DNA from: Candidatus Anderseniibacteriota bacterium
GTDB taxonomy: Bacteria; Patescibacteriota; Andersenbacteria; UBA10190
Direction of reading: 5' to 3'
Assembly: GCA_016197005.1 (NCBI GenBank)
Contig: JACPWO010000004.1
Span: 6,305 to 70,304 of the forward strand
Length of the DNA: 64,000 nt
Under the pieces are notes generated by a model, which saw nothing but the letters and a program-made list of their open reading frames with translations, did no database searches and was not told where the DNA came from. The position numbers were made by a program, and so were the translations under genes. Position 1 is the stretch's first letter. Each line of letters starts with the position of its first letter. Shown here one piece after another: positions 1-30,568 of this stretch.

Positions 1-3000
1 GTCGATCACGTTGATGTAAAGGATTCTCAAGCATCATCAAATGACATTACTTGTCAGGCCTGTACGAATAGTGGTGGTAACGATAACGCGGAGGCATCCC
101 CTCATTGGGTATTCCAAGCTGGCGGCTCAATTACGGTAGCGGGAACAGTGTATTCTGATGAAGGATCAACTCCTTTAACAGGAGGAAAGACTGTCAGCGT
201 AGCAATTAATGGAGGAGTTGAAGCTTCGGGAGAGACAAATACAACTACTGGCGTCTATTCTATTACCTCACCGCCAACAACAGCTGGCGATGTAATGACA
301 ATATATTTAGAAAACGAAACAGAAGATGCGGTAACCGTAACCGTAAATGATGGTACCAATATGTCTGGAGTAGACCTGTATCAAAATAAGCTGATCACTC
401 GACATGATAATGCGGGTTCTCTTACCAATGCGAATCTATCTACGGCTCAGTTTGGAACTGGCGGCTCAACCGTGTTTAGTGATTTATTCACTACGGCTAG
501 CGATACGGCGCTTCTCTCTCACGCCCCAAATACTGGTACGAGTTGGACAAAGCTTCTTTCCTTCGGTAATACCACGGTCAATAATCTGACCGTAAAAGCA
601 GCGGACTATTTACAACGAGGAGGTGGTTCTGGGGCAGTAAATACCGGCTCTCTTTACACAGCCAACGCAACTTACCCTAGTGCCAATTACGAAGTAAGTG
701 TTCAGCAGGTTCAAGCTCAACCAGACGATGATTATAGTTCAATAGCTGCTCGCATTCAGGATGCTAATAACTTTTACGTATTTTGGTGGAGTGAAGGGGG
801 GGGTGCCCTGGGAAAAGTAGTGAGCGGTGCTTCCTCAAGCTTAGGCTCTACGGCAGTGTCTATCGCAGATGGAAGTATCGTAAAATTGCGAGTCGAAGGG
901 ACAAGTATACAGGTGTATGACGACAGCACGCTCCTCATTGATGCGACTGATAGTAGTATTACCGCTGCCGGAAAAGCTGGGGTTGGAATGGGGGCACTAA
1001 AGTCTAATCTCTTGCCTTCCGCTGACTTAACGTTGCAACGAGTTGATAGTTTCTCAGTAAAAACAATTGGTGAGGACGATATAACAGCAATCTATTCGGT
1101 GACAAACGGAGAACTTACGATGGTTAGTGGTAAAGAGCTTTTGGTATGGGGTGGTGATACATTTGCGCCAGGCGGTAAGATAAATGTTGATGATATTGAT
1201 ATCAACGGAACACTCACTTTGAGTTCAAACACTGCTAAAGTGAGTGGTTCGTGGGATGCGACAGGAGGATCATTTACGTCTTCTGGTAATGTTGTGTTTA
1301 CCTCTCCTAGTGATGAGACAATCATATCTGACGGTGATGCATTTAATAACGTGTATATAAATGACGGCTTAATTGGTTACTGGAAAATGGATGCTGGCAC
1401 TGGCACAACCGTTGTTGATTCCAGTGGGTATGGGTTTAATGGCACATTAACAAATTCTGCGGGTGGATGGACATCGTCTGCACCGTCAGTGAATTTTACT
1501 GATCCGTATGCTCTCGATTTTGACGGAACAGACGATTATGTGGATATAGCTGATACTGATACTTTAGATGTTGGCCCTACTGCTGATTTTACGATTTCGG
1601 GGTGGTTCAACCGAGATACATTCACAACAATGGACACAATCCTAGCTAAAAAAGAAAATACTGCTACAACACCAGGATATTTACTTTACATTCACGATAC
1701 ATTGGATGTGTTGGGATTTAAAGTTGCTGACGGTCTTACTGCATACAGCGTAACGTCAACCAGTACATTCACTTCAACTGGCTGGAATCATTTTGTGGTG
1801 GTCTGGGATCAAGATAGTTCGGCAAATACAAAAATGTATATCAATGGGGTTGCTGAGGGTACACCTAGCGGCACAATTGGAAATGTTGGTGACCTTAGTA
1901 ATTCATTGAGTTTACGATTTGGTACTGAATCTGACGATGGTAATCCATTTGATGGTAAACTAGACGACATCCGCATATACAACCGTGTCCTCACGGCGCA
2001 AGAAGTAAACTCTTTAGCCGTTGGCAATCAACCCGCCACCGAAAACACTGCTGCCTCTGAATTCACCCTTGAAGATACACTGGATGTCAACGGCAATCTT
2101 GTCCTTAACTCCGGAGAACTAGATACCAAATCCGGTGAAGATAACAGTATTACCCTCGCCGGTGAGTGGCATAACAACGGCGGTAAGTTCACTCCTAGAT
2201 CAGGAACGGTGACGTTGGATGGATCTTCTTCCTCGCAAGAAATACAATCTGGTGGTCAGAATTTTAACAATCTTACGGTGTCCGGTTCAGGAGGATGGAC
2301 GATGCACGATCGGCTTGAAGTGGATGGCGCCTTTGCCCAATCAGCCGGTACATTTTCAACGAGTTCAAGTAACTACAATATTCAGAGTGGCGACTGGGAT
2401 CAAACCGCCGGAACATTTAACCCCAACTCCTCTACCGTCACTCTCAAGAGTTCATCCAATCAAACCATTAACACTGATGACCCCTTCTACGATCTCCAGG
2501 TAGAAGACCCAACCCCGGCCAACCTCCTCGGTTACTGGAAGTTTGATGAAGGTCAAGGAACGTCAGCTTTTGACTCTTCCGGCAACGCTAGCACTGGTAC
2601 GCTTACTAATACTCCCCTGTGGACTGAAACCGTCAACTCTACTACTACCTATGACAATCCTTACTCTCTGGACTTTGACGGAACCGATGATTATGTCACT
2701 GCTGGCGACATTGCCGCCGTGGATACCGTCACCGCCTTAACCGTCTGTGCCTGGGTCTACCACGATACGGCCACAACTGATGACTCCATTGTATCCAAAA
2801 CTGCCTCGGCTACTCTCGCTACTGATGGCTTCATGCTCTTCCGTGATGATGTAGGCTCCGCCAGTGCTCGAACAGATACCTACAAATGGGGTGTTGGTGA
2901 CAGTGCTGATGGTGATTCGGTATATATTGAAGGCGCTACCAACGCCGGCACGGCCAGTGCCTGGCGTAATGTGTGCGGTACCTACACCGCCAGCAGTGCC

Positions 3001-3807
3001 ACTGGTCTGCGTCTCTACATTAATGGCGCTGAAGACGCCAACAGCCCCGCCAGTACCAGTAGTATTGCCGCCATTAACGGCGGTACGGCTGCTGTCCAAG
3101 TCGGTATGATTAGTACCAGCTCCATTCCTTTTGATGGAAAGATCGATGATGTGAGGATATATAGCTCCGCTCTCACCTCTACTCAGATTGCAGCTCTCGC
3201 CGCTGGCAAGTATGCCGATGGGAATACTTCCGTTGCTACCTTCACCCTCAACACCGCGCTTGATGTGAACCACGACCTCTATCTCCAATCTGGCATCTTA
3301 GATGTATCTGCTTCTAACTGTTCTTCAGCTTCCTGTGCTATCACTGACGCTCGCAACTGGAACAACTACGGCGGTACGAGTTCCTTAACTGCTCGAACCG
3401 GTACCGTAACCCTTGATGGAACAGATCAATCCGTAAATGGATCAACGACCTTCTATAATCTCACAAAGAATGAGAGTTCGAACAACGCAACAGATGAAAC
3501 GGTGACGATGCAGATTAATCAGACAACGACGGTAAGTAGCCGGTTTACACTCGAAGGTCGGGATAGTGATGATCGCATTAATATTGTTAGCAGTTCGGCC
3601 GGCACGAAGCACACGATTGATGTAACAGCAGGTCAACAAGTTACCCACTGGGTTGATGTAAAAGATTCGCAATCTTCAACTTCCAATATTGCCTGTCAGC
3701 AATGCGTAAATAGCGGCGGAAATGATGATGCGGATGCTGCTCCTCATTGGTTATTTGGGGAGGGCAGTGGACGCAATCGCCTCGTGAGGGCTTTGGCAAC
3801 AGATTAG
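1..3807 (+). CDS. Giant secreted/surface protein with two LamG/concanavalin-A-like lectin repeats; 5' end lies outside the window (the reading frame is open from position 1)
   Basis: Frame 1 is open from nt 1 and in frame with the 148..3807 ORF. The motif ...DGTDDYV...DGK(L/I)DD(I/V)RIY...LT..(E/Q)(V/I)..LA.G... occurs twice (around aa 470-640 and 830-1030), which is a typical LamG signature. The motif VKDSQ.S..I.CQ.C.NSGGND.A.A.PHW is encoded both at nt 1-120 and at nt 3640-3760, implying a repeating module. The protein is rich in Thr, Ser, Gly and Asn. Confidence 0.6.
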   Translation, partial: VDHVDVKDSQASSNDITCQACTNSGGNDNAEASPHWVFQAGGSITVAGTVYSDEGSTPLTGGKTVSVAINGGVEASGETNTTTGVYSITSPPTTAGDVMTIYLENETEDAVTVTVNDGTNMSGVDLYQNKLITRHDNAGSLTNANLSTAQFGTGGSTVFSDLFTTASDTALLSHAPNTGTSWTKLLSFGNTTVNNLTVKAADYLQRGGGSGAVNTGSLYTANATYPSANYEVSVQQVQAQPDDDYSSIAARIQDANNFYVFWWSEGGGALGKVVSGASSSLGSTAVSIADGSIVKLRVEGTSIQVYDDSTLLIDATDSSITAAGKAGVGMGALKSNLLPSADLTLQRVDSFSVKTIGEDDITAIYSVTNGELTMVSGKELLVWGGDTFAPGGKINVDDIDINGTLTLSSNTAKVSGSWDATGGSFTSSGNVVFTSPSDETIISDGDAFNNVYINDGLIGYWKMDAGTGTTVVDSSGYGFNGTLTNSAGGWTSSAPSVNFTDPYALDFDGTDDYVDIADTDTLDVGPTADFTISGWFNRDTFTTMDTILAKKENTATTPGYLLYIHDTLDVLGFKVADGLTAYSVTSTSTFTSTGWNHFVVVWDQDSSANTKMYINGVAEGTPSGTIGNVGDLSNSLSLRFGTESDDGNPFDGKLDDIRIYNRVLTAQEVNSLAVGNQPATENTAASEFTLEDTLDVNGNLVLNSGELDTKSGEDNSITLAGEWHNNGGKFTPRSGTVTLDGSSSSQEIQSGGQNFNNLTVSGSGGWTMHDRLEVDGAFAQSAGTFSTSSSNYNIQSGDWDQTAGTFNPNSSTVTLKSSSNQTINTDDPFYDLQVEDPTPANLLGYWKFDEGQGTSAFDSSGNASTGTLTNTPLWTETVNSTTTYDNPYSLDFDGTDDYVTAGDIAAVDTVTALTVCAWVYHDTATTDDSIVSKTASATLATDGFMLFRDDVGSASARTDTYKWGVGDSADGDSVYIEGATNAGTASAWRNVCGTYTASSATGLRLYINGAEDANSPASTSSIAAINGGTAAVQVGMISTSSIPFDGKIDDVRIYSSALTSTQIAALAAGKYADGNTSVATFTLNTALDVNHDLYLQSGILDVSASNCSSASCAITDARNWNNYGGTSSLTARTGTVTLDGTDQSVNGSTTFYNLTKNESSNNATDETVTMQINQTTTVSSRFTLEGRDSDDRINIVSSSAGTKHTIDVTAGQQVTHWVDVKDSQSSTSNIACQQCVNSGGNDDADAAPHWLFGEGSGRNRLVRALATD

Positions 3808-3839: not shown

Positions 3840-6572
3840 ATGGTTAAGAAGGCGAAGATTGCTCTCATTGATGCTAACGCGCTCATCCACCGCGCGTATC
3901 ACGCGTTGCCACCTATGAGCACAAAAGATGGGCTCCCAACGCATGCGGTATTTGGTTTTACGAGTATGCTGCTCAAAATGTTTACTACGCTGAAACCAAC
4001 CCATGCTGTGGCTGCCTTTGATGTGAAAGGAAAAACATTTCGACACAAGAAATTTGCTGCGTATAAAGCCCATCGTAAAAAGACACCAGAGGACCTTATT
4101 GAGCAGTTTCCGATCGTAAAAGAAGTGCTGGCTGCCTTTGGTATTCCTATTATTGAAAAAGCTGGGTATGAGGCTGATGACATTATTGGAACGCTCGTAA
4201 AACGGATCGATGGTAGTACCAAGAAGATTATTGTCACCGGGGACAAAGATGCACTCCAGTTGGTGGACCAACTGACGAGTGTATTTACCTCTAAGCGTGG
4301 GGTAACAGATACGATTCTGTATACGCCGGAACTAGTACGAGAACATTTTGGCTTTGGGCCAGAACATATTGTTGATTACAAAGGACTACGTGGAGATCCC
4401 TCGGATAATATTCCAGGAGTAGCTGGGGTGGGAGATAAAACGGCCAAAGACGTGATCATTCAATTTGGGTCGGTAGAAAATATTTATAAGCATTTAGATG
4501 ATATTCCCGCTCGAGCGAAGAAGCGCTTAGAAGGGAAGCAAAAAGAGGCTCTTTTGAGCAAAGATCTGGCAACGATAGATAGAGATGTTCCTATATCTTT
4601 TCAGCTACAAGATGCTTCTTTAGATAGATATAATCCCACTGCCATTCAAGACCTATTTGCTCGTCTCGGGTTTCGCAGTCTCATGCAGCGCCTTCCTCAG
4701 CAGGCTCAAAGTCAGCCCACACTCTTTAGTAAAGGAGCAGCAATAAATGTAGTTACGTTGCCAGAAAATTATCATCTAGCGGCAACTGAAGAAGAAAAGA
4801 AAGAATTGCAGAAATTGCTTCGAAAACAAAAGTTTATTGCATTTGATACTGAAAATGATTCTCTAGGTGCGCGCATATATCCGATAGTAGGATTCAGTGT
4901 TGCCTTCCGGGTAGAAGGAAATATTCAGGCGTACTACGTCCCGGTTACTCGTGATTCAGTTAGAGAGTGGAAAGACATTTTAGAGGATCCGACCATTCAA
5001 AAGACTGGTCATAATATTAAATATGACATTGAAGTTTTAGCTCAATCGGGTATTCATTTGCGGGGTGTTGCCTTTGATTCCATGATTGCTGGGTATCTTT
5101 TAAGTCCAGGAACACGCCAGTACAACATGGACAGTATGGCAATGGAGGAACTAGGACACCGAACCATACCTATCATCGATCTCATTGGTACGGGAAAAGA
5201 CCAAAAAAAGATGTCAGAGGTTCCCTTACCTGAGTTGGCGCGCTATGCGGCTGAGGATGCAGATATAACACTACAGTTGTACGAGAAATTAGAGCCACGT
5301 ATTAAAAAAGAAGGACTAACGAGGGTTATGGAGGAAATTGAAATTCCCCTGATTCCGGTTCTTGTAGCATTAGAACTCAATGGTGTGGCAGTCGATACAA
5401 AAAAGTTGTCCGAACTTCAAAAAGTGGTCTCGCACGGGATCAAGAAATATGAACAAGAAATATGGAAAGTAGCGGGGTCAAAATTTAACATAAATTCTAC
5501 TCGTCAACTTCGGGAAGTGCTGTATGTAAAGCTCAAGCTTCCAACGGTTGGTATAAAGCGGACACAATCAGGGTTTTCAACTGCCGCTCCAGAGCTTGCT
5601 AAGCTCCATGGGACGCATGAGGTTATTAACTATATTGAGCATTACCGTGAACTGACGAAACTTAAGAATACATATATCGACACATTGCCGGAGTTAGTCG
5701 ATAAAAAAACAGGCAGAATTTACGGGCAGTTTAATCAGGTGGTTGCGGCTACCGGACGTCTTTCCTCCCAGGATCCAAATTTACAAAATATTCCGGCCCG
5801 AACGGAGCTTGGGCAAGAAATTCGTACTGCATTTATAGCCGCCAAAGGAAACGTGCTCGTTAAAGCTGATTACTCACAGATTGAGCTGCGGCTCGCAGCT
5901 CACATGTCGCAAGACGAAAAGATGCTGCAAGTATTTCGTGACGGCGGAGATATTCATCGGGCTACAGCCGCTTGGGTATATGGCATCGAGCCAGAAAAAG
6001 TTTCTGATCAACAGCGACGACAAGCAAAAACCCTTAATTTCGGTGTGCTGTATGGTATGGGCTCAATGGCCTTCGCTAGGGCCGCTGATATTAGTGTTGA
6101 AGAAGCCCAGTCTTTCATTGGTCGCTATCGCGAGCAGTACAATAGGCTCACGGCATACATTCAAGAGATACTGACCTTTGCATCCGAACATGGCTATGTT
6201 GAGACGCTTCTAGGTCGCAAGCGATACGTCCCGGAGCTTGAATCTAATAACCCGCAGGTACGGGCCGCTGCTGAGCGCGCTGCGTTCAACTTTCCCCTGC
6301 AAGGCACTGCAGCCGATATTATTAAGAAGGCAATGATTGAACTTCAACGAGATATTGAGAAAAACTTTCCTGATGCCAGGATGGTCTTAACAGTGCACGA
6401 CGAACTGGTGGTTGAAGTGTCCGAAAGGAAAGCAACAGTGTTTGCTAAGACGATGAAGAAAATAATGGAAGAGGTAATAACACTTGATGTTCCACTTATT
6501 GTTGATGTAGCGAAAGGGCGAAATTGGCGAGATATGCAGCCAATCAAAAATGGTAGAAAAAGTGACAAGTAA
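3840..6572 (+). CDS. polA: DNA polymerase I (5'-3' exonuclease, 3'-5' exonuclease-like and polymerase domains)
   Basis: 910 aa. The N-terminal 5' nuclease region reads GDKDALQLV. The polymerase motifs RLSSQDPNLQNIP, ADYSQIELRLAAHMS and VHDELVVE are present. Confidence 0.95.
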   Translation: MVKKAKIALIDANALIHRAYHALPPMSTKDGLPTHAVFGFTSMLLKMFTTLKPTHAVAAFDVKGKTFRHKKFAAYKAHRKKTPEDLIEQFPIVKEVLAAFGIPIIEKAGYEADDIIGTLVKRIDGSTKKIIVTGDKDALQLVDQLTSVFTSKRGVTDTILYTPELVREHFGFGPEHIVDYKGLRGDPSDNIPGVAGVGDKTAKDVIIQFGSVENIYKHLDDIPARAKKRLEGKQKEALLSKDLATIDRDVPISFQLQDASLDRYNPTAIQDLFARLGFRSLMQRLPQQAQSQPTLFSKGAAINVVTLPENYHLAATEEEKKELQKLLRKQKFIAFDTENDSLGARIYPIVGFSVAFRVEGNIQAYYVPVTRDSVREWKDILEDPTIQKTGHNIKYDIEVLAQSGIHLRGVAFDSMIAGYLLSPGTRQYNMDSMAMEELGHRTIPIIDLIGTGKDQKKMSEVPLPELARYAAEDADITLQLYEKLEPRIKKEGLTRVMEEIEIPLIPVLVALELNGVAVDTKKLSELQKVVSHGIKKYEQEIWKVAGSKFNINSTRQLREVLYVKLKLPTVGIKRTQSGFSTAAPELAKLHGTHEVINYIEHYRELTKLKNTYIDTLPELVDKKTGRIYGQFNQVVAATGRLSSQDPNLQNIPARTELGQEIRTAFIAAKGNVLVKADYSQIELRLAAHMSQDEKMLQVFRDGGDIHRATAAWVYGIEPEKVSDQQRRQAKTLNFGVLYGMGSMAFARAADISVEEAQSFIGRYREQYNRLTAYIQEILTFASEHGYVETLLGRKRYVPELESNNPQVRAAAERAAFNFPLQGTAADIIKKAMIELQRDIEKNFPDARMVLTVHDELVVEVSERKATVFAKTMKKIMEEVITLDVPLIVDVAKGRNWRDMQPIKNGRKSDK

Positions 6573-6599
6573 GATAATTGTGGTATGGTGAAATGATCG

Positions 6600-6905
6600 C
6601 AAGAGGCGGTCATCTGTTCATTCCGCCAGGCATGCATTGAAGCATGCCTACGCATCCTTATTAACCCGGGAGTGAATCCCGATGTGGTTTCGAGACTTTG
6701 GAAGTAGGCACTTTCGAAAAAGATCCTCACGAATGCACTGGCGCAGGAAGTATCATTGCCGTCGAATGATACGGGGAAGGAGGTGGTCCTAAGCTCTACG
6801 GCGTCTCCCCAGGTGGATGGGAGTGACACCAAACTTTGTTTAGCCCGAGGCGCCTATGCGCTGAAACCACTTAGGAACTCTAGGCAGTCTGTGCGTTCAC
6901 AGGCT
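6600..6905 (+). ncRNA. Structured intergenic RNA candidate; identity unresolved (tmRNA, RNase P RNA or another sRNA were considered)
   Basis: There is no plausible CDS in this region. Perfect hairpins lie in series: GGCGG..CCGCC (6602-6625), AGGCATGC-ATTGAA-GCATGCCT (6628-6649), CGGGA-GTGAA-TCCCG, GTATCATT-GCCGTCG-AATGATAC and GGGGA...TCCCC. A long-range CCTAAG/CTTAGG complement is present. The region ends in an intrinsic terminator. Confidence 0.35.
6867..6905 (+). terminator. Rho-independent terminator (12-bp stem AGGCAGTCTGTG/CACAGGCTGCCT followed by a T-rich tail)
   Basis: A perfect stem with one G-U pair and a CGTT loop is followed by TTTCTCTTACTCT on the + strand only. Confidence 0.6.
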
Positions 6906-6914
6906 GCCTTTCTC

Positions 6915-7946
6915 TTACTCTGAAAATTTCTCAGCACAGGCGTTTGAAGCTTGGACTTGTTTATTATATTGCTCGATTGTTTTTGCCAGTGCTGTTGAGC
7001 CGCTATTTAACTGGTTGACCTGGTCATTGTATTTCTTTTGCTCTACTTCGTATGTAGCTGCTTGTTTATCTGCTTCTAAGCGCAATTGCTTTCCTTCCTC
7101 TTGGAGCTGCTTTCCTTTATCCCAGTGTGGTTGCGCCTGATCGGTATTACCTGTTTCTTCATATACGTGGTTTCCCTTCTCGATTTCTGCATTCCCTTCT
7201 TCTATCTTTCTGGCTGCTTCTTCGAATAGTTGTTTAATTTCGTTGCTGCGAACAGTCAGATAAGCGGAGCTGGTTTTGAGTTCTTTATCTAATGAATCCA
7301 GTCGTGCTCTTTCTTTATCAATGGTGGTTTTAAGTGTTGGTTCAGGTAACGGGCAGGCCGAGGCGGGAGTGGCAAATGTTTGGACAGCCAGCCAAGTGTG
7401 ATCGCCTTCAAACATCCCTTGCCCAACCGCAATACCAATTTCCGTAAAACCGGCCGATAGCATATTTGCCCTATGTCCGGGTGAATCCATCCACGCTTGT
7501 ACCAGCGCCTGATCAGATTCAAAGTTTCCGAGGGCTAAGTTTTCGCCAACACGGATGTACAAGTAGCCAACGCCTTCTACTACTTCAGCTGGGCCTTCGC
7601 CCGTTGGCGATTGGTGTTCAAAATATTGTCTGGCAAACATATCCTCCAGCTTATTTTCTGCTGCCATATCAAGGGTAGTATTGCGAGTAAGAGCTTGTTT
7701 GCCGTCAGCTGTCCGGTGTTGGTTAGTAAACGTAAAAACCCCGTCGGCGGTAAGAGTAGTTTGTTGTTGACTGAAGGGGCCACGAAGTGGAGGCGGAGTT
7801 ATGACCTCACGAGAGAGAGGAAGAAGGCTAGTCCCTGCTTCAAAATCTTTTAACAACTCACCAACATTACCCTGGTAGTAATACCAGCCTAAGACTCCAC
7901 TTCCGCCGAGAATAAGGAGAAAGGCAATAAGAAGACGAGAGCTCAT
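6915..7946 (-). CDS. Membrane-anchored CAP/SCP/PR-1-like domain protein with a C-terminal coiled-coil region
   Basis: An N-terminal TM helix is present. The motif ...QAWMDSPGHRANMLSAGFTEIGIAVGQ... is typical of bacterial SCP/CAP (YkwD-like) domains. The C-terminal 120 aa are lysine, glutamate and glutamine rich with heptad-like spacing. Confidence 0.5.
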   Translation of the reverse strand: MSSRLLIAFLLILGGSGVLGWYYYQGNVGELLKDFEAGTSLLPLSREVITPPPLRGPFSQQQTTLTADGVFTFTNQHRTADGKQALTRNTTLDMAAENKLEDMFARQYFEHQSPTGEGPAEVVEGVGYLYIRVGENLALGNFESDQALVQAWMDSPGHRANMLSAGFTEIGIAVGQGMFEGDHTWLAVQTFATPASACPLPEPTLKTTIDKERARLDSLDKELKTSSAYLTVRSNEIKQLFEEAARKIEEGNAEIEKGNHVYEETGNTDQAQPHWDKGKQLQEEGKQLRLEADKQAATYEVEQKKYNDQVNQLNSGSTALAKTIEQYNKQVQASNACAEKFSE

Positions 7947-10314: not shown

Positions 10315-10436
10315 ATTTTATGAACTCTTTTGAAATTTCCAGAATTATACGAATCTCCGGAATAGAAATAATTAGAAGAAGTTGATCGATCTCGATCATT
10401 GCTTGTTGCGGAAGGGGCGGTATAGATAGGAAGTAG

Positions 10437-10480
10437 ACAAAAAGAAACCGCGATCTCTCAAGCGAGAAACCGCGGCGAAT
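10437..10480 (-). terminator. Rho-independent terminator for the 10493..10861 gene
   Basis: On the minus strand a nested hairpin CCGCGG-TTTCTC-GC-TTGA-GAGA-T-CGCGG is followed by TTTCTTTTTG. Confidence 0.5.
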
Positions 10481-10492
10481 AAATACAAAAGA

Positions 10493-10861
10493 TCACCTTC
10501 CTTTTTTCCCTCCTAGAAAGTGAACCAAACTGGAGAAAAAGATACTCAGGATATAGGTAGCAAGGGCTACCGGCCAAGCGATCATCGCGGCTGCGGAGAA
10601 AGGTGTTTTCCAGAGCTTTTTCGCGCCCCGGGAAAACATCTTTGATAGTCCTTGGCAAGAACTTTTAGTGTATCGCTTAATTGCCTTTGCCCACCAAAAC
10701 GGTGAAGCGCCGAATGGATAGAATAAGACACCAATCGCAGTAGCGATAACCGCGAGTACGAGTAAATACTGCAGGAGGTTGCCCTCCATAGTGACCTCCG
10801 TTGTGAAAGAACGATCGAAACTGTAACTTACAATATAAGCACATTTTAATGTAAAAGTCAA
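10493..10861 (-). CDS. Small integral membrane protein (2-3 TM), hypothetical
   Basis: The sequence has hydrophobic helices (LLVLAVIATAIGVLFY; MIAWPVALATYILSIFFSSLV). A terminator lies downstream. Confidence 0.45.
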   Translation of the reverse strand: MTFTLKCAYIVSYSFDRSFTTEVTMEGNLLQYLLVLAVIATAIGVLFYPFGASPFWWAKAIKRYTKSSCQGLSKMFSRGAKKLWKTPFSAAAMIAWPVALATYILSIFFSSLVHFLGGKKGR

Positions 10862-10931
10862 TTAAAGGGGTGTGGGAGCCTCTTATAGTGTGGTTTTAGA
10901 GCTCCTTTATTGATCGTGATATACTGCAGCC

Positions 10932-30442: not shown

Positions 30443-30568
30443 TTATACAGCCTCTTCTTTATCGCCTCCCATGTCACCTCCCATATCGCCGCCTTCGGTT
30501 GGAGTCGGGGTAGGAGCGGCAGTGTCGCCACCGTCCATTCCACCTTCTTCTTCACCATCGAACATCAT
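30443..30568 (-). CDS. Unannotated 41-aa acidic Gly/Asp/Met-rich peptide (MMFDGEEEGGMDGGDTAAPTPTPTEGGDMGGDMGGDKEEAV) with a strong SD
   Basis: This is my manual translation. GGGAGGTGATACGT precedes the ATG. The ORF is flanked by a terminator. Confidence 0.3.
   Translation of the reverse strand: MMFDGEEEGGMDGGDTAAPTPTPTEGGDMGGDMGGDKEEAV

Follow-up and report, generated by a model that had tools for sequence, protein, structure and literature searches.

What occupies the 342 nucleotides (nt) between polA and the CAP-domain gene that converges on it is the question raised by the stretch of DNA analysed here, 64 kb from an uncultured groundwater member of Candidatus Andersenbacteria (Candidate Phyla Radiation, CPR, or Patescibacteria) whose genome is metagenome-assembled; the whole of this stretch is referred to below as the window. 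An initial annotation, made from the letters of the window, had described the gap as a highly structured RNA that could be a housekeeping RNA or else a divergent or novel one. Comparison with the same locus in relatives argues that a real RNA gene lies there, previously unclassified and restricted to its lineage, and that the invariant purine box in its 3′ half points to the anti-Shine-Dalgarno (anti-SD) tail of the ribosome as partner, which would be a variation on a known principle.

Elements shared by the predicted RNA genes

The gap runs from the polA stop at 6572 to the end of the CAP gene (6915-7946, - strand), and the length of 342 nt given in the initial annotation follows from these gene coordinates. 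Relatives were collected as PolA homologues of 56-73% identity from a protein collection and their contigs were fetched; metagenomes were also scanned with an alignment of the CAP protein. PolA of the window (3840-6572) is identical to PolA of GCA_016178385.1 (contig JACOTL010000001), a genome named Candidatus Andersenbacteria; among the relatives, L074 is GCA_040876835.1 and L075 is GCA_040881505.1. A homologue of the RNA was found directly downstream of polA in 10 genomes, in 9 of them at full length and in one (L161) as the 5′ part. What comparison of these RNAs showed is a common promoter position, a 5′ hairpin (P1) with compensatory changes, a purine box, a terminator and the absence of a conserved open reading frame (ORF); their coordinates are given in Table 1.

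P1 was examined in an alignment of 8 homologues made by hand, in which 93% of the cells were paired and 4 of the 9 pairs had changed on both sides (C-G to U-A or G-U; G-C to A-U). None of 500 shuffles reached its covariation score, and registers slid along the hairpin paired in 22-63% of cells. The automatic alignment had put the 3′ arm of P1 out of register; P1 and the box were aligned by hand, with the loops padded with N. In L163, P1 has a different sequence (AAGAGCAG/CUGCUCUU). The idea that the 5′ arm of P1, which resembles GAUCAC, might pair with the box, either as a switch or to form a closing stem, was rejected, as the arm varies and covaries with its local partner and the box is fixed.

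Upstream of P1, a TAnnnT-type box was found 3-4 nt 5′ of the hairpin in the 9 homologues that show the start of the RNA, L074 apart. The -10 hexamers across these 9 read TATGGT, TATAAT, GACAAT, TATGAT, TACAAT, TATACT, TATGGT, TATATA and TATACT, and a TG extension and plausible -35 often accompany them; in the exception, L074, about 20 nt separate TATACT from the hairpin downstream, which is itself divergent. If transcription begins 5-6 nt past the -10 box, the start in the window would be at about 6595-6596, so that the RNA would open directly with the P1 core (GAUCGC/GCGGUC), and the two or three pairs outside it may form only in transcripts that read through from polA. At the other end, the 12-bp stem noted initially (AGGCAGTCTGTG/CACAGGCTGCCT, 6882-6909, followed by TTCTCTTACT) was recovered by a scan as a + strand terminator, the tail of which overlaps the CAP stop codon (6915-6917). 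A G+C-rich hairpin with a U tract ends 8 of the 9 full-length homologues, on the + strand only, and L163 has no clear terminator. The predicted RNA would span roughly 6595-6919 in the window, a length of about 320 nt; in relatives the range is 205-380 nt. The marks of a stand-alone small RNA (sRNA), namely its own promoter, a terminator and no conserved ORF, are all found among the predicted elements of the homologues, and the conservation of promoter and terminator indicates that the + strand is the functional one.

The interior of the RNA is a different matter. The local hairpins that the initial annotation had pointed out are present in the window: the 8-bp pairings AGGCATGC/GCATGCCT (6628-6635/6642-6649) and GTATCATT/AATGATAC (6750-6757/6765-6772) are both 100% complementary, and the minimum-free-energy fold adds further hairpins at 6593-6613 (ATGATCGC/GCGGTCAT), 6667-6681 and 6697-6718. 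The gap has a G+C content of 51-53%, against about 39-45% in its flanks (6-10 points higher), and the predicted + strand fold of the region is more stable than those of dinucleotide shuffles (z = -2.75; 0 of 100 shuffles equalled it). The - strand gave z = -3.36 against shuffles, so that folding energy cannot choose the strand. Between homologues, however, neither sequence nor structure could be aligned in the body of the RNA (6620..6773), the distance from P1 to the box ranges over 114-199 nt, and when the whole RNA was aligned with MAFFT L-INS-i and folded with RNAalifold, P1 was the sole consensus helix. Comparison with related intergenic regions bore out a shared 5′ hairpin with compensatory changes and recovered no second helix. 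What stands is a + strand gene for a non-coding RNA that ends in the terminator first proposed; the dense array of hairpins is not conserved, and 'highly structured RNA' describes the sequence of the window and not the family.

The purine box and the 3′ end of 16S rRNA

In the purine box the homologues agree closely: GAGGTGATC was the only k-mer common to the RNAs above the level of shuffles (present in 8 of 8, against a shuffle maximum of 5). The box is complementary to GAUCACCUCCUUUCU, which we take to be the canonical Bacillus-type 3′ tail of bacterial 16S ribosomal RNA (rRNA), and 99% of its 105 aligned cells pair with this assumed tail. None of the 9 columns facing C, A or G varies; variation is confined to the 6 facing U, where A and G alone are exchanged, so that an A-U or G-U pair is always kept. 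By our own arithmetic, the chance of 6 variable columns landing on exactly those 6 of 15 positions is 1 in 5005. Pairing with the tail is 15/15 in five homologues and 14/15 in L072, and the two halves of the box are kept around a 2-nt bulge in L075 and L078 (7 + 8 pairs) and in L163 (8 + 7). In L163 the box is also partly repeated at 4970-4983, some 50 nt further on; this incomplete copy, AGAAAGGAGGAUAC, would pair with the 16S tail at -16.3 kcal/mol.

The calculated energy of the duplex with the canonical tail lies between -20 and -27 kcal/mol in every homologue. When every 20-nt segment of the 64 kb was scored on both strands (mean -3.8, standard deviation 2.7), the box of the window was predicted to bind the tail most strongly, at -25.2 kcal/mol, and the next-best site, at -19.7 kcal/mol, is a genuine ribosome-binding site. 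Within 1.11 Mb of fetched loci the degenerate pattern of the box occurred only in homologues of the RNA; a look-alike in L153 proved to be low-complexity repeat sequence and was discarded. The complementarity ends at the C opposite G1530 (E. coli numbering), the first unpaired nucleotide after helix 45; since the match ends where helix 45 begins, the box would cover the free 16S tail and no more. No consistent partner for the box was found inside the RNA, the fold of each homologue pairing it differently, and the fact that it has remained fixed while its surroundings diverged fits a partner that itself does not change. The possibility that the - strand holds the decayed remnant of a 16S gene was rejected, no rRNA signature being present in any locus, as was a sponge of the CsrA type, GGA motifs not being enriched by our own count.

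A sequence of this kind might be thought to serve translation of the RNA, and we weighed the idea that the region holds a small-protein gene or dual-function RNA, with the box as the ribosome-binding site of a short ORF that has escaped recognition. In its favour, the only other extended Shine-Dalgarno sequence (SD) of the window does precede a small ORF (30443-30568, - strand), and although the initial annotation had named an antisense ORF as the only one here, which exists at 6344-6832, a second one, of 55 aa on the + strand (6756-6923), also crosses the gap. Pfam gave no match for either of these ORFs. No ATG, GTG or TTG was found 4-12 nt past the box in 7 of the 8 homologues checked (the exception being a TTG in L074), and in L076 only 4 nt separate the box from the terminator. 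Reading frames opening downstream of the box vary in length from 3 to over 50 codons and have no common sequence, and a six-frame cross-comparison of 9 homologues gave only matches of 5-27 aa, in shifting frames and on both strands, at conserved nucleotides. A leaderless small ORF from the conserved AUG of AUGAUC fared no better: its frames are 5-46 codons long and share no sequence, and the -10 box is 3 nt away, too close when compared with the 6-7 nt of the clade's leaderless genes. On this comparative evidence the RNA has no conserved ORF and is non-coding, and a small-protein gene appears very improbable.

The way in which other genes of the clade start also bears on the box. An SD-like 4-mer at -18 to -5 was found in 3 of 43 genes in the window and 7 of 60 genes in the loci of relatives, with a background of 9% at random positions. 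A TAnnnT motif ending 4-9 nt before the start codon was found in 16 of 43 and 28 of 60 genes respectively, again with a random-position background of 9%, and this -10-like motif commonly stands 6-7 nt before the ATG (for example at starts 3840, 7996 and 10932, and in loci L072-L079 and L160-L163). The excess of TAnnnT suggests that leaderless mRNAs are widespread; the genes of the clade show no SD enrichment and many look leaderless. Extended SDs are rare. One, AGAAAGGGAGGUGAUA, has its core GGGAGGUGAU ending 4 nt before the ATG of the small ORF at 30443-30568, and another, GAAAGGAGGUG, stands before L079:7560; indirectly, they imply that a canonical anti-SD tail, including its UUUC part, has been retained. 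The protein encoded at 30443-30568 has 41 aa and is very acidic (MMFDGEEEGGMDGGDTAAPTPTPTEGGDMGGDMGGDKEEAV), and its SD is the second strongest site for the 16S tail in the window.

The box can also be read from the other side. On the - strand it reads GACCACCUCCUUCCC, and the 3′ untranslated region (UTR) of the CAP mRNA might imitate the 3′ end of 16S rRNA, by means of a hairpin and GAUCACCUCCUU, and so bind SDs or factors recognising the tail. In L076, L072 and L092 a hairpin does precede this sequence, as helix 45 does in 16S rRNA, and the folding energy is equally good on this strand. However, it is only on the + strand that conserved -10 boxes occur and stems are followed by U tracts, P1 would make a poor - strand terminator, and L163 has the RNA without a CAP gene downstream; we consider a functional - strand very improbable indeed.

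A fixed partner might equally be something other than rRNA. The RNA could be an ordinary trans-acting sRNA or a protein sponge, with the box as a seed for CU-rich targets or as a protein site and the match to 16S rRNA incidental. The architecture of an sRNA is present (own promoter, 5′ hairpin, one short conserved box, terminator), binding of the box to the ribosome is a prediction, and the combination of invariant G and variable A would suit any fixed CU-rich partner. Against this, the partner deduced from the box is identical to the canonical 16S tail over 15 nt and ends exactly at helix 45, and a target able to fix the box across PolA identities of 65-73% must itself be extremely conserved. 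Nor is there in the 64-kb window a target of equal complementarity to the box: the two closest candidates are within or next to - strand genes, and one of them is the real SD of the small ORF. We judge an ordinary sRNA or sponge unlikely.

The explanation that we put forward, with about an even chance of being right, is a stand-alone, lineage-restricted and dispensable + strand sRNA that docks on the anti-SD tail without being translated. The box would be an SD-like sequence not used for translation and would pair with the whole free 3′ tail of 16S rRNA (G1530 to the end, 15 bp) and so anchor the RNA to the 30S subunit at the anti-SD site, which the genes of the lineage almost never use; P1 would protect the 5′ end of the RNA. 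The least certain step is what docking would bring about. The anti-SD tail might be occupied or masked, with the effect that the few SD-led genes are tuned or ribosomes are silenced or protected, or else the RNA itself might be stabilised, as with the STAB-SD sequence discussed below. A more ambitious form of the same idea, a dedicated ribosome-regulating RNA in a 6S-like role that pairs with the entire free 16S tail and masks, silences or protects the 30S subunit or sets the expression of a few SD-led genes, is a tentative possibility that we would rate well below the docking itself. Such an RNA would operate in a lineage that has exchanged SD-led initiation for leaderless mRNAs yet seems to have kept the anti-SD tail. 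No rival explains the pattern of the 15-nt box as simply as anti-SD docking.

Table 1. Elements of the predicted RNA gene in the window, the box in its homologues, and the state of the polA-CAP junction in relatives.
Feature	Position or locus	Strand	Description (basis)
Predicted promoter	6562..6589	+	-35-like GTGACA 6562-6567, 16-nt spacer, extended -10 TGgTATGGT, hexamer 6584-6589 (promoter scan)
P1 hairpin	6593..6613	+	AUGAUCGC / loop AAGAG / GCGGUCAU (fold and covariation)
Linker CUGUUC	6614..6619	+	UGUUC/UGUAC in most homologues (alignments)
Variable structured body	6620..6773	+	hairpins 6628-6649, 6667-6681, 6697-6718 and 6750-6772 in the window
Purine box	6774..6788	+	GGGAAGGAGGUGGUC; complementary to canonical 16S 3′ tail 5′-GAUCACCUCCUUUCU-3′
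Variable 3′ region	6789..6881	+	between box and terminator; about 4 nt (L076) to about 180 nt (L072)
Predicted intrinsic terminator	6882..6919	+	12-bp stem, CGUU loop, U-rich tail UUCUCUUACU
Box	L076		GGGAAGGAGGUGAUC
Box	L092		AGAGAGGAGGUGAUC
Box	L073		AGAGAGGGGGUGAUC
Box	L074		GGGAGGGAGGUGGUC
Box	L072		UGAAGGGAGGUGAUC
Box	L075		AGAAAGG[UC]AGGUGAUC
Box	L078		AGAAAGG[UA]AGGUGAUC
Box	L163		AGAAAGGA[AC]GGUGGUC
polA-CAP junction with RNA homologue	window, L072, L073, L074, L075, L076 (= L077), L078, L092, L161, L163		
5′ part of RNA only	L161		contig ends there
Variant form of RNA	L163		gene downstream not CAP
polA and CAP abut or overlap, no gap	L080, L082, L083, L091, L160		
Junction filled by two unrelated ORFs	L079		
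Junction filled by Tsp45I-like restriction-modification pair	L162		

Distribution of the RNA and its relation to polA and to known families

The order polA, gap, convergent CAP gene is retained in relatives whose PolA is 65-73% identical to that of the window, and the junction itself is variable (Table 1). In L162 the interval 4740-6580 carries a Tsp45I-like restriction enzyme and an N6/N4 methyltransferase, and in L079 the two unannotated ORFs at 5301-6202 are of 171 and 86 aa. When species-representative genomes were scanned with PolA, only distant polA loci (at most 48% identity) were obtained and no homologue of the RNA, and an nhmmer profile of the RNA run against 163 fetched loci (1.10 Mb) matched only the sequences from which it had been built. 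When the C-terminus of PolA was used for a quick neighbour-joining tree, the genomes with the RNA grouped in a single clade with one loss; L092 falls outside this clade, on the basis of a partial PolA that makes its placement uncertain. As judged from these sequences, the RNA is confined to one clade of Candidatus Andersenbacteria, in which it would be inherited vertically and has been repeatedly lost at the polA-CAP locus, sitting in a variable junction.

This distribution, together with the position of the RNA, bears on the question of whether it is a gene at all or simply the 3′ UTR or terminator region of polA, in which conserved elements serve the stability or termination of the polA mRNA. 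The element always lies directly downstream of polA, its promoter overlaps the final codons of polA by way of the -35 sequence, and there is no terminator between the two, so that any read-through from polA must contain the RNA. A 3′ UTR would, however, have no need of a -10 box placed at a constant distance from P1 in 9 homologues, other relatives manage without the region, their polA and CAP genes abutting or overlapping, and the 15-nt box would be left unexplained. That the region is no more than a polA 3′ UTR therefore seems unlikely.

The initial annotation had suggested a housekeeping RNA (RNase P RNA, transfer-messenger RNA (tmRNA) or 6S RNA), and this was not borne out. At the gathering score Rfam gave no match in the whole 64 kb; at E<=10 on 6450-7050 nothing relevant appeared, the sole match being a chance one to a long non-coding RNA inside the CAP gene (E=7); and at E<=1 there was no match in 9 homologous loci. 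ARAGORN found no transfer RNA (tRNA) or tmRNA in the window. RNase P RNA of types A and B (P4 pseudoknot, CR-I/CR-V) is not supported, there being no match to RNaseP_bact_a or RNaseP_bact_b at any of these thresholds, and neither is tmRNA (tRNA-like domain and tag frame), which neither ARAGORN nor Rfam matched. For 6S RNA there was no Rfam match, the 5′ end is a local covarying hairpin, and the folds of the homologues are branched and dissimilar; for the RNA of the signal recognition particle (SRP; domain IV, helix 8) there was no Rfam match at permissive thresholds in the region or the homologous loci. The RNA is thus absent from Rfam, as the divergent or novel option of the initial annotation would have it.

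A very divergent form of one of these housekeeping RNAs (RNase P RNA, tmRNA, 6S RNA or SRP RNA) would be in keeping with the size of about 320 nt and the density of hairpins in the window, and CPR lineages are poorly represented in covariance models. On the other side are the Rfam searches at permissive thresholds and the ARAGORN result, a body that is conserved neither in sequence nor in length nor in structure, a 5′ end that forms a local hairpin and is not paired with the 3′ end, and the lack of the RNA at the polA-CAP locus in close relatives. Repeated loss and a variable junction are a poor fit to an essential housekeeping RNA, and we regard this explanation as exceedingly improbable.

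Several considerations weigh against docking on the anti-SD tail, and these have to be set beside the regularity of the box. The sample is small, 9 full-length homologues and one 5′ fragment, and P1 and the box were aligned by hand. No rRNA was present in any fetched locus, and the partner is accordingly the canonical bacterial tail, which is assumed. The box is not specially exposed in predicted folds, its mean unpaired probability being 0.04-0.42, about average for each RNA. The pattern of variable A and fixed G could also arise if the G residues were recognised by a protein or by a different CU-rich RNA. The start site is placed by the usual spacing from the -10 box, at which the outer pairs of P1 would fall upstream of it. 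At the polA-CAP locus, which is where the RNA was looked for, a number of close relatives lack it, and it follows that no essential ribosome function can rest on the RNA. Finally, a single RNA species would have to be abundant in order to act on ribosomes globally. Ultra-small CPR cells have been reported to contain only some tens of ribosomes, and if this is true, moderate expression of a single RNA might be enough to titrate a large part of them.

Some other features came to light in the loci that were examined. Upstream of polA, the region 148-3807 (+ strand), which runs on beyond the start of the window, encodes a giant surface protein of the Laminin_G_3 or concanavalin-like kind, which has 2931 aa on the longer contig L001. 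A further seeming gap, of 617 nt and raised G+C (10315-10931), contains a - strand ORF listed at 10493-10861, probably starting with the ATG at 10791; its product, a small hydrophobic protein, is below the reach of a scan for ORFs of at least 150 aa. Among the PolA homologues, P0037 (1354 aa) has an intein and homing-endonuclease domains (PF07591, PF14528 and PF14890) inserted in the polymerase.

Comparison with known systems

To our knowledge, almost nothing is known about RNA regulators in the CPR, for which the present sequences provide a concrete and testable candidate RNA family. In the literature that we searched, no precedent was found for a CPR/Patescibacteria RNA of such a kind, or for a natural sRNA that pairs with the anti-SD sequence. 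If docking is true, this would be a natural stand-alone RNA aimed at the anti-SD site itself and not at an mRNA, and it would bear on why bacteria that are poor in SDs keep an anti-SD sequence; if the docking idea is false, the RNA remains an unclassified, lineage-restricted sRNA.

The nearest precedent for the box is STAB-SD, in the 5′ UTR of cry3A of Bacillus thuringiensis, a non-initiating SD-like sequence that pairs with the 3′ end of 16S rRNA, such that the bound 30S subunit blocks the 5′-3′ exonuclease RNase J1 (PMC4113751). Like STAB-SD, the box is complementary to the 16S 3′ end (the canonical tail being assumed) and has no start codon or ORF at a functional distance. STAB-SD, however, is located near the 5′ end of a coding mRNA and protects the part downstream of it, whereas the box lies in the 3′ half of an RNA without an ORF and is followed by a terminator. 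The box also differs in spanning 15 nt, which would be the whole of the free tail, and in belonging to a genome that hardly uses SDs; and while STAB-SD binds the 30S subunit, such binding is predicted for the Andersenbacteria box.

A second comparison is with 6S RNA, a stand-alone stable RNA that imitates an open promoter and so occupies the nucleic-acid-binding site of RNA polymerase. By analogy only, the Andersenbacteria RNA would imitate the ribosome-binding site of an mRNA for the 30S subunit. It differs from 6S RNA in having no match to it in sequence or structure and no rod with a central bubble, in its presumed target, in being probably dispensable and in its restriction to one clade.

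Ribosome-associated non-coding RNAs (ncRNAs) are the subject of a review (PMC8938821), and one example is a fragment of Val-tRNA in Haloferax volcanii that binds the small subunit and competes with mRNA, though not by means of SD/anti-SD pairing (PMC5711459). If docking holds, the Andersenbacteria RNA would likewise be an ncRNA that binds the small subunit in competition with mRNA. The Val-tRNA fragment is, however, a product of tRNA processing, whereas the RNA described here would come from a dedicated gene and its only conserved single-stranded element is complementary to the anti-SD (an anti-anti-SD).

With base-pairing sRNAs in general the RNA has in common its own predicted promoter, a 5′ hairpin of the protective kind, a short pairing box, a Rho-independent terminator, a narrow range and frequent loss. 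It is larger than most of them, at 205-380 nt, its seed is purine-rich and not of the usual CU-rich anti-SD type, and the partner to which that seed points is an rRNA and not an mRNA.

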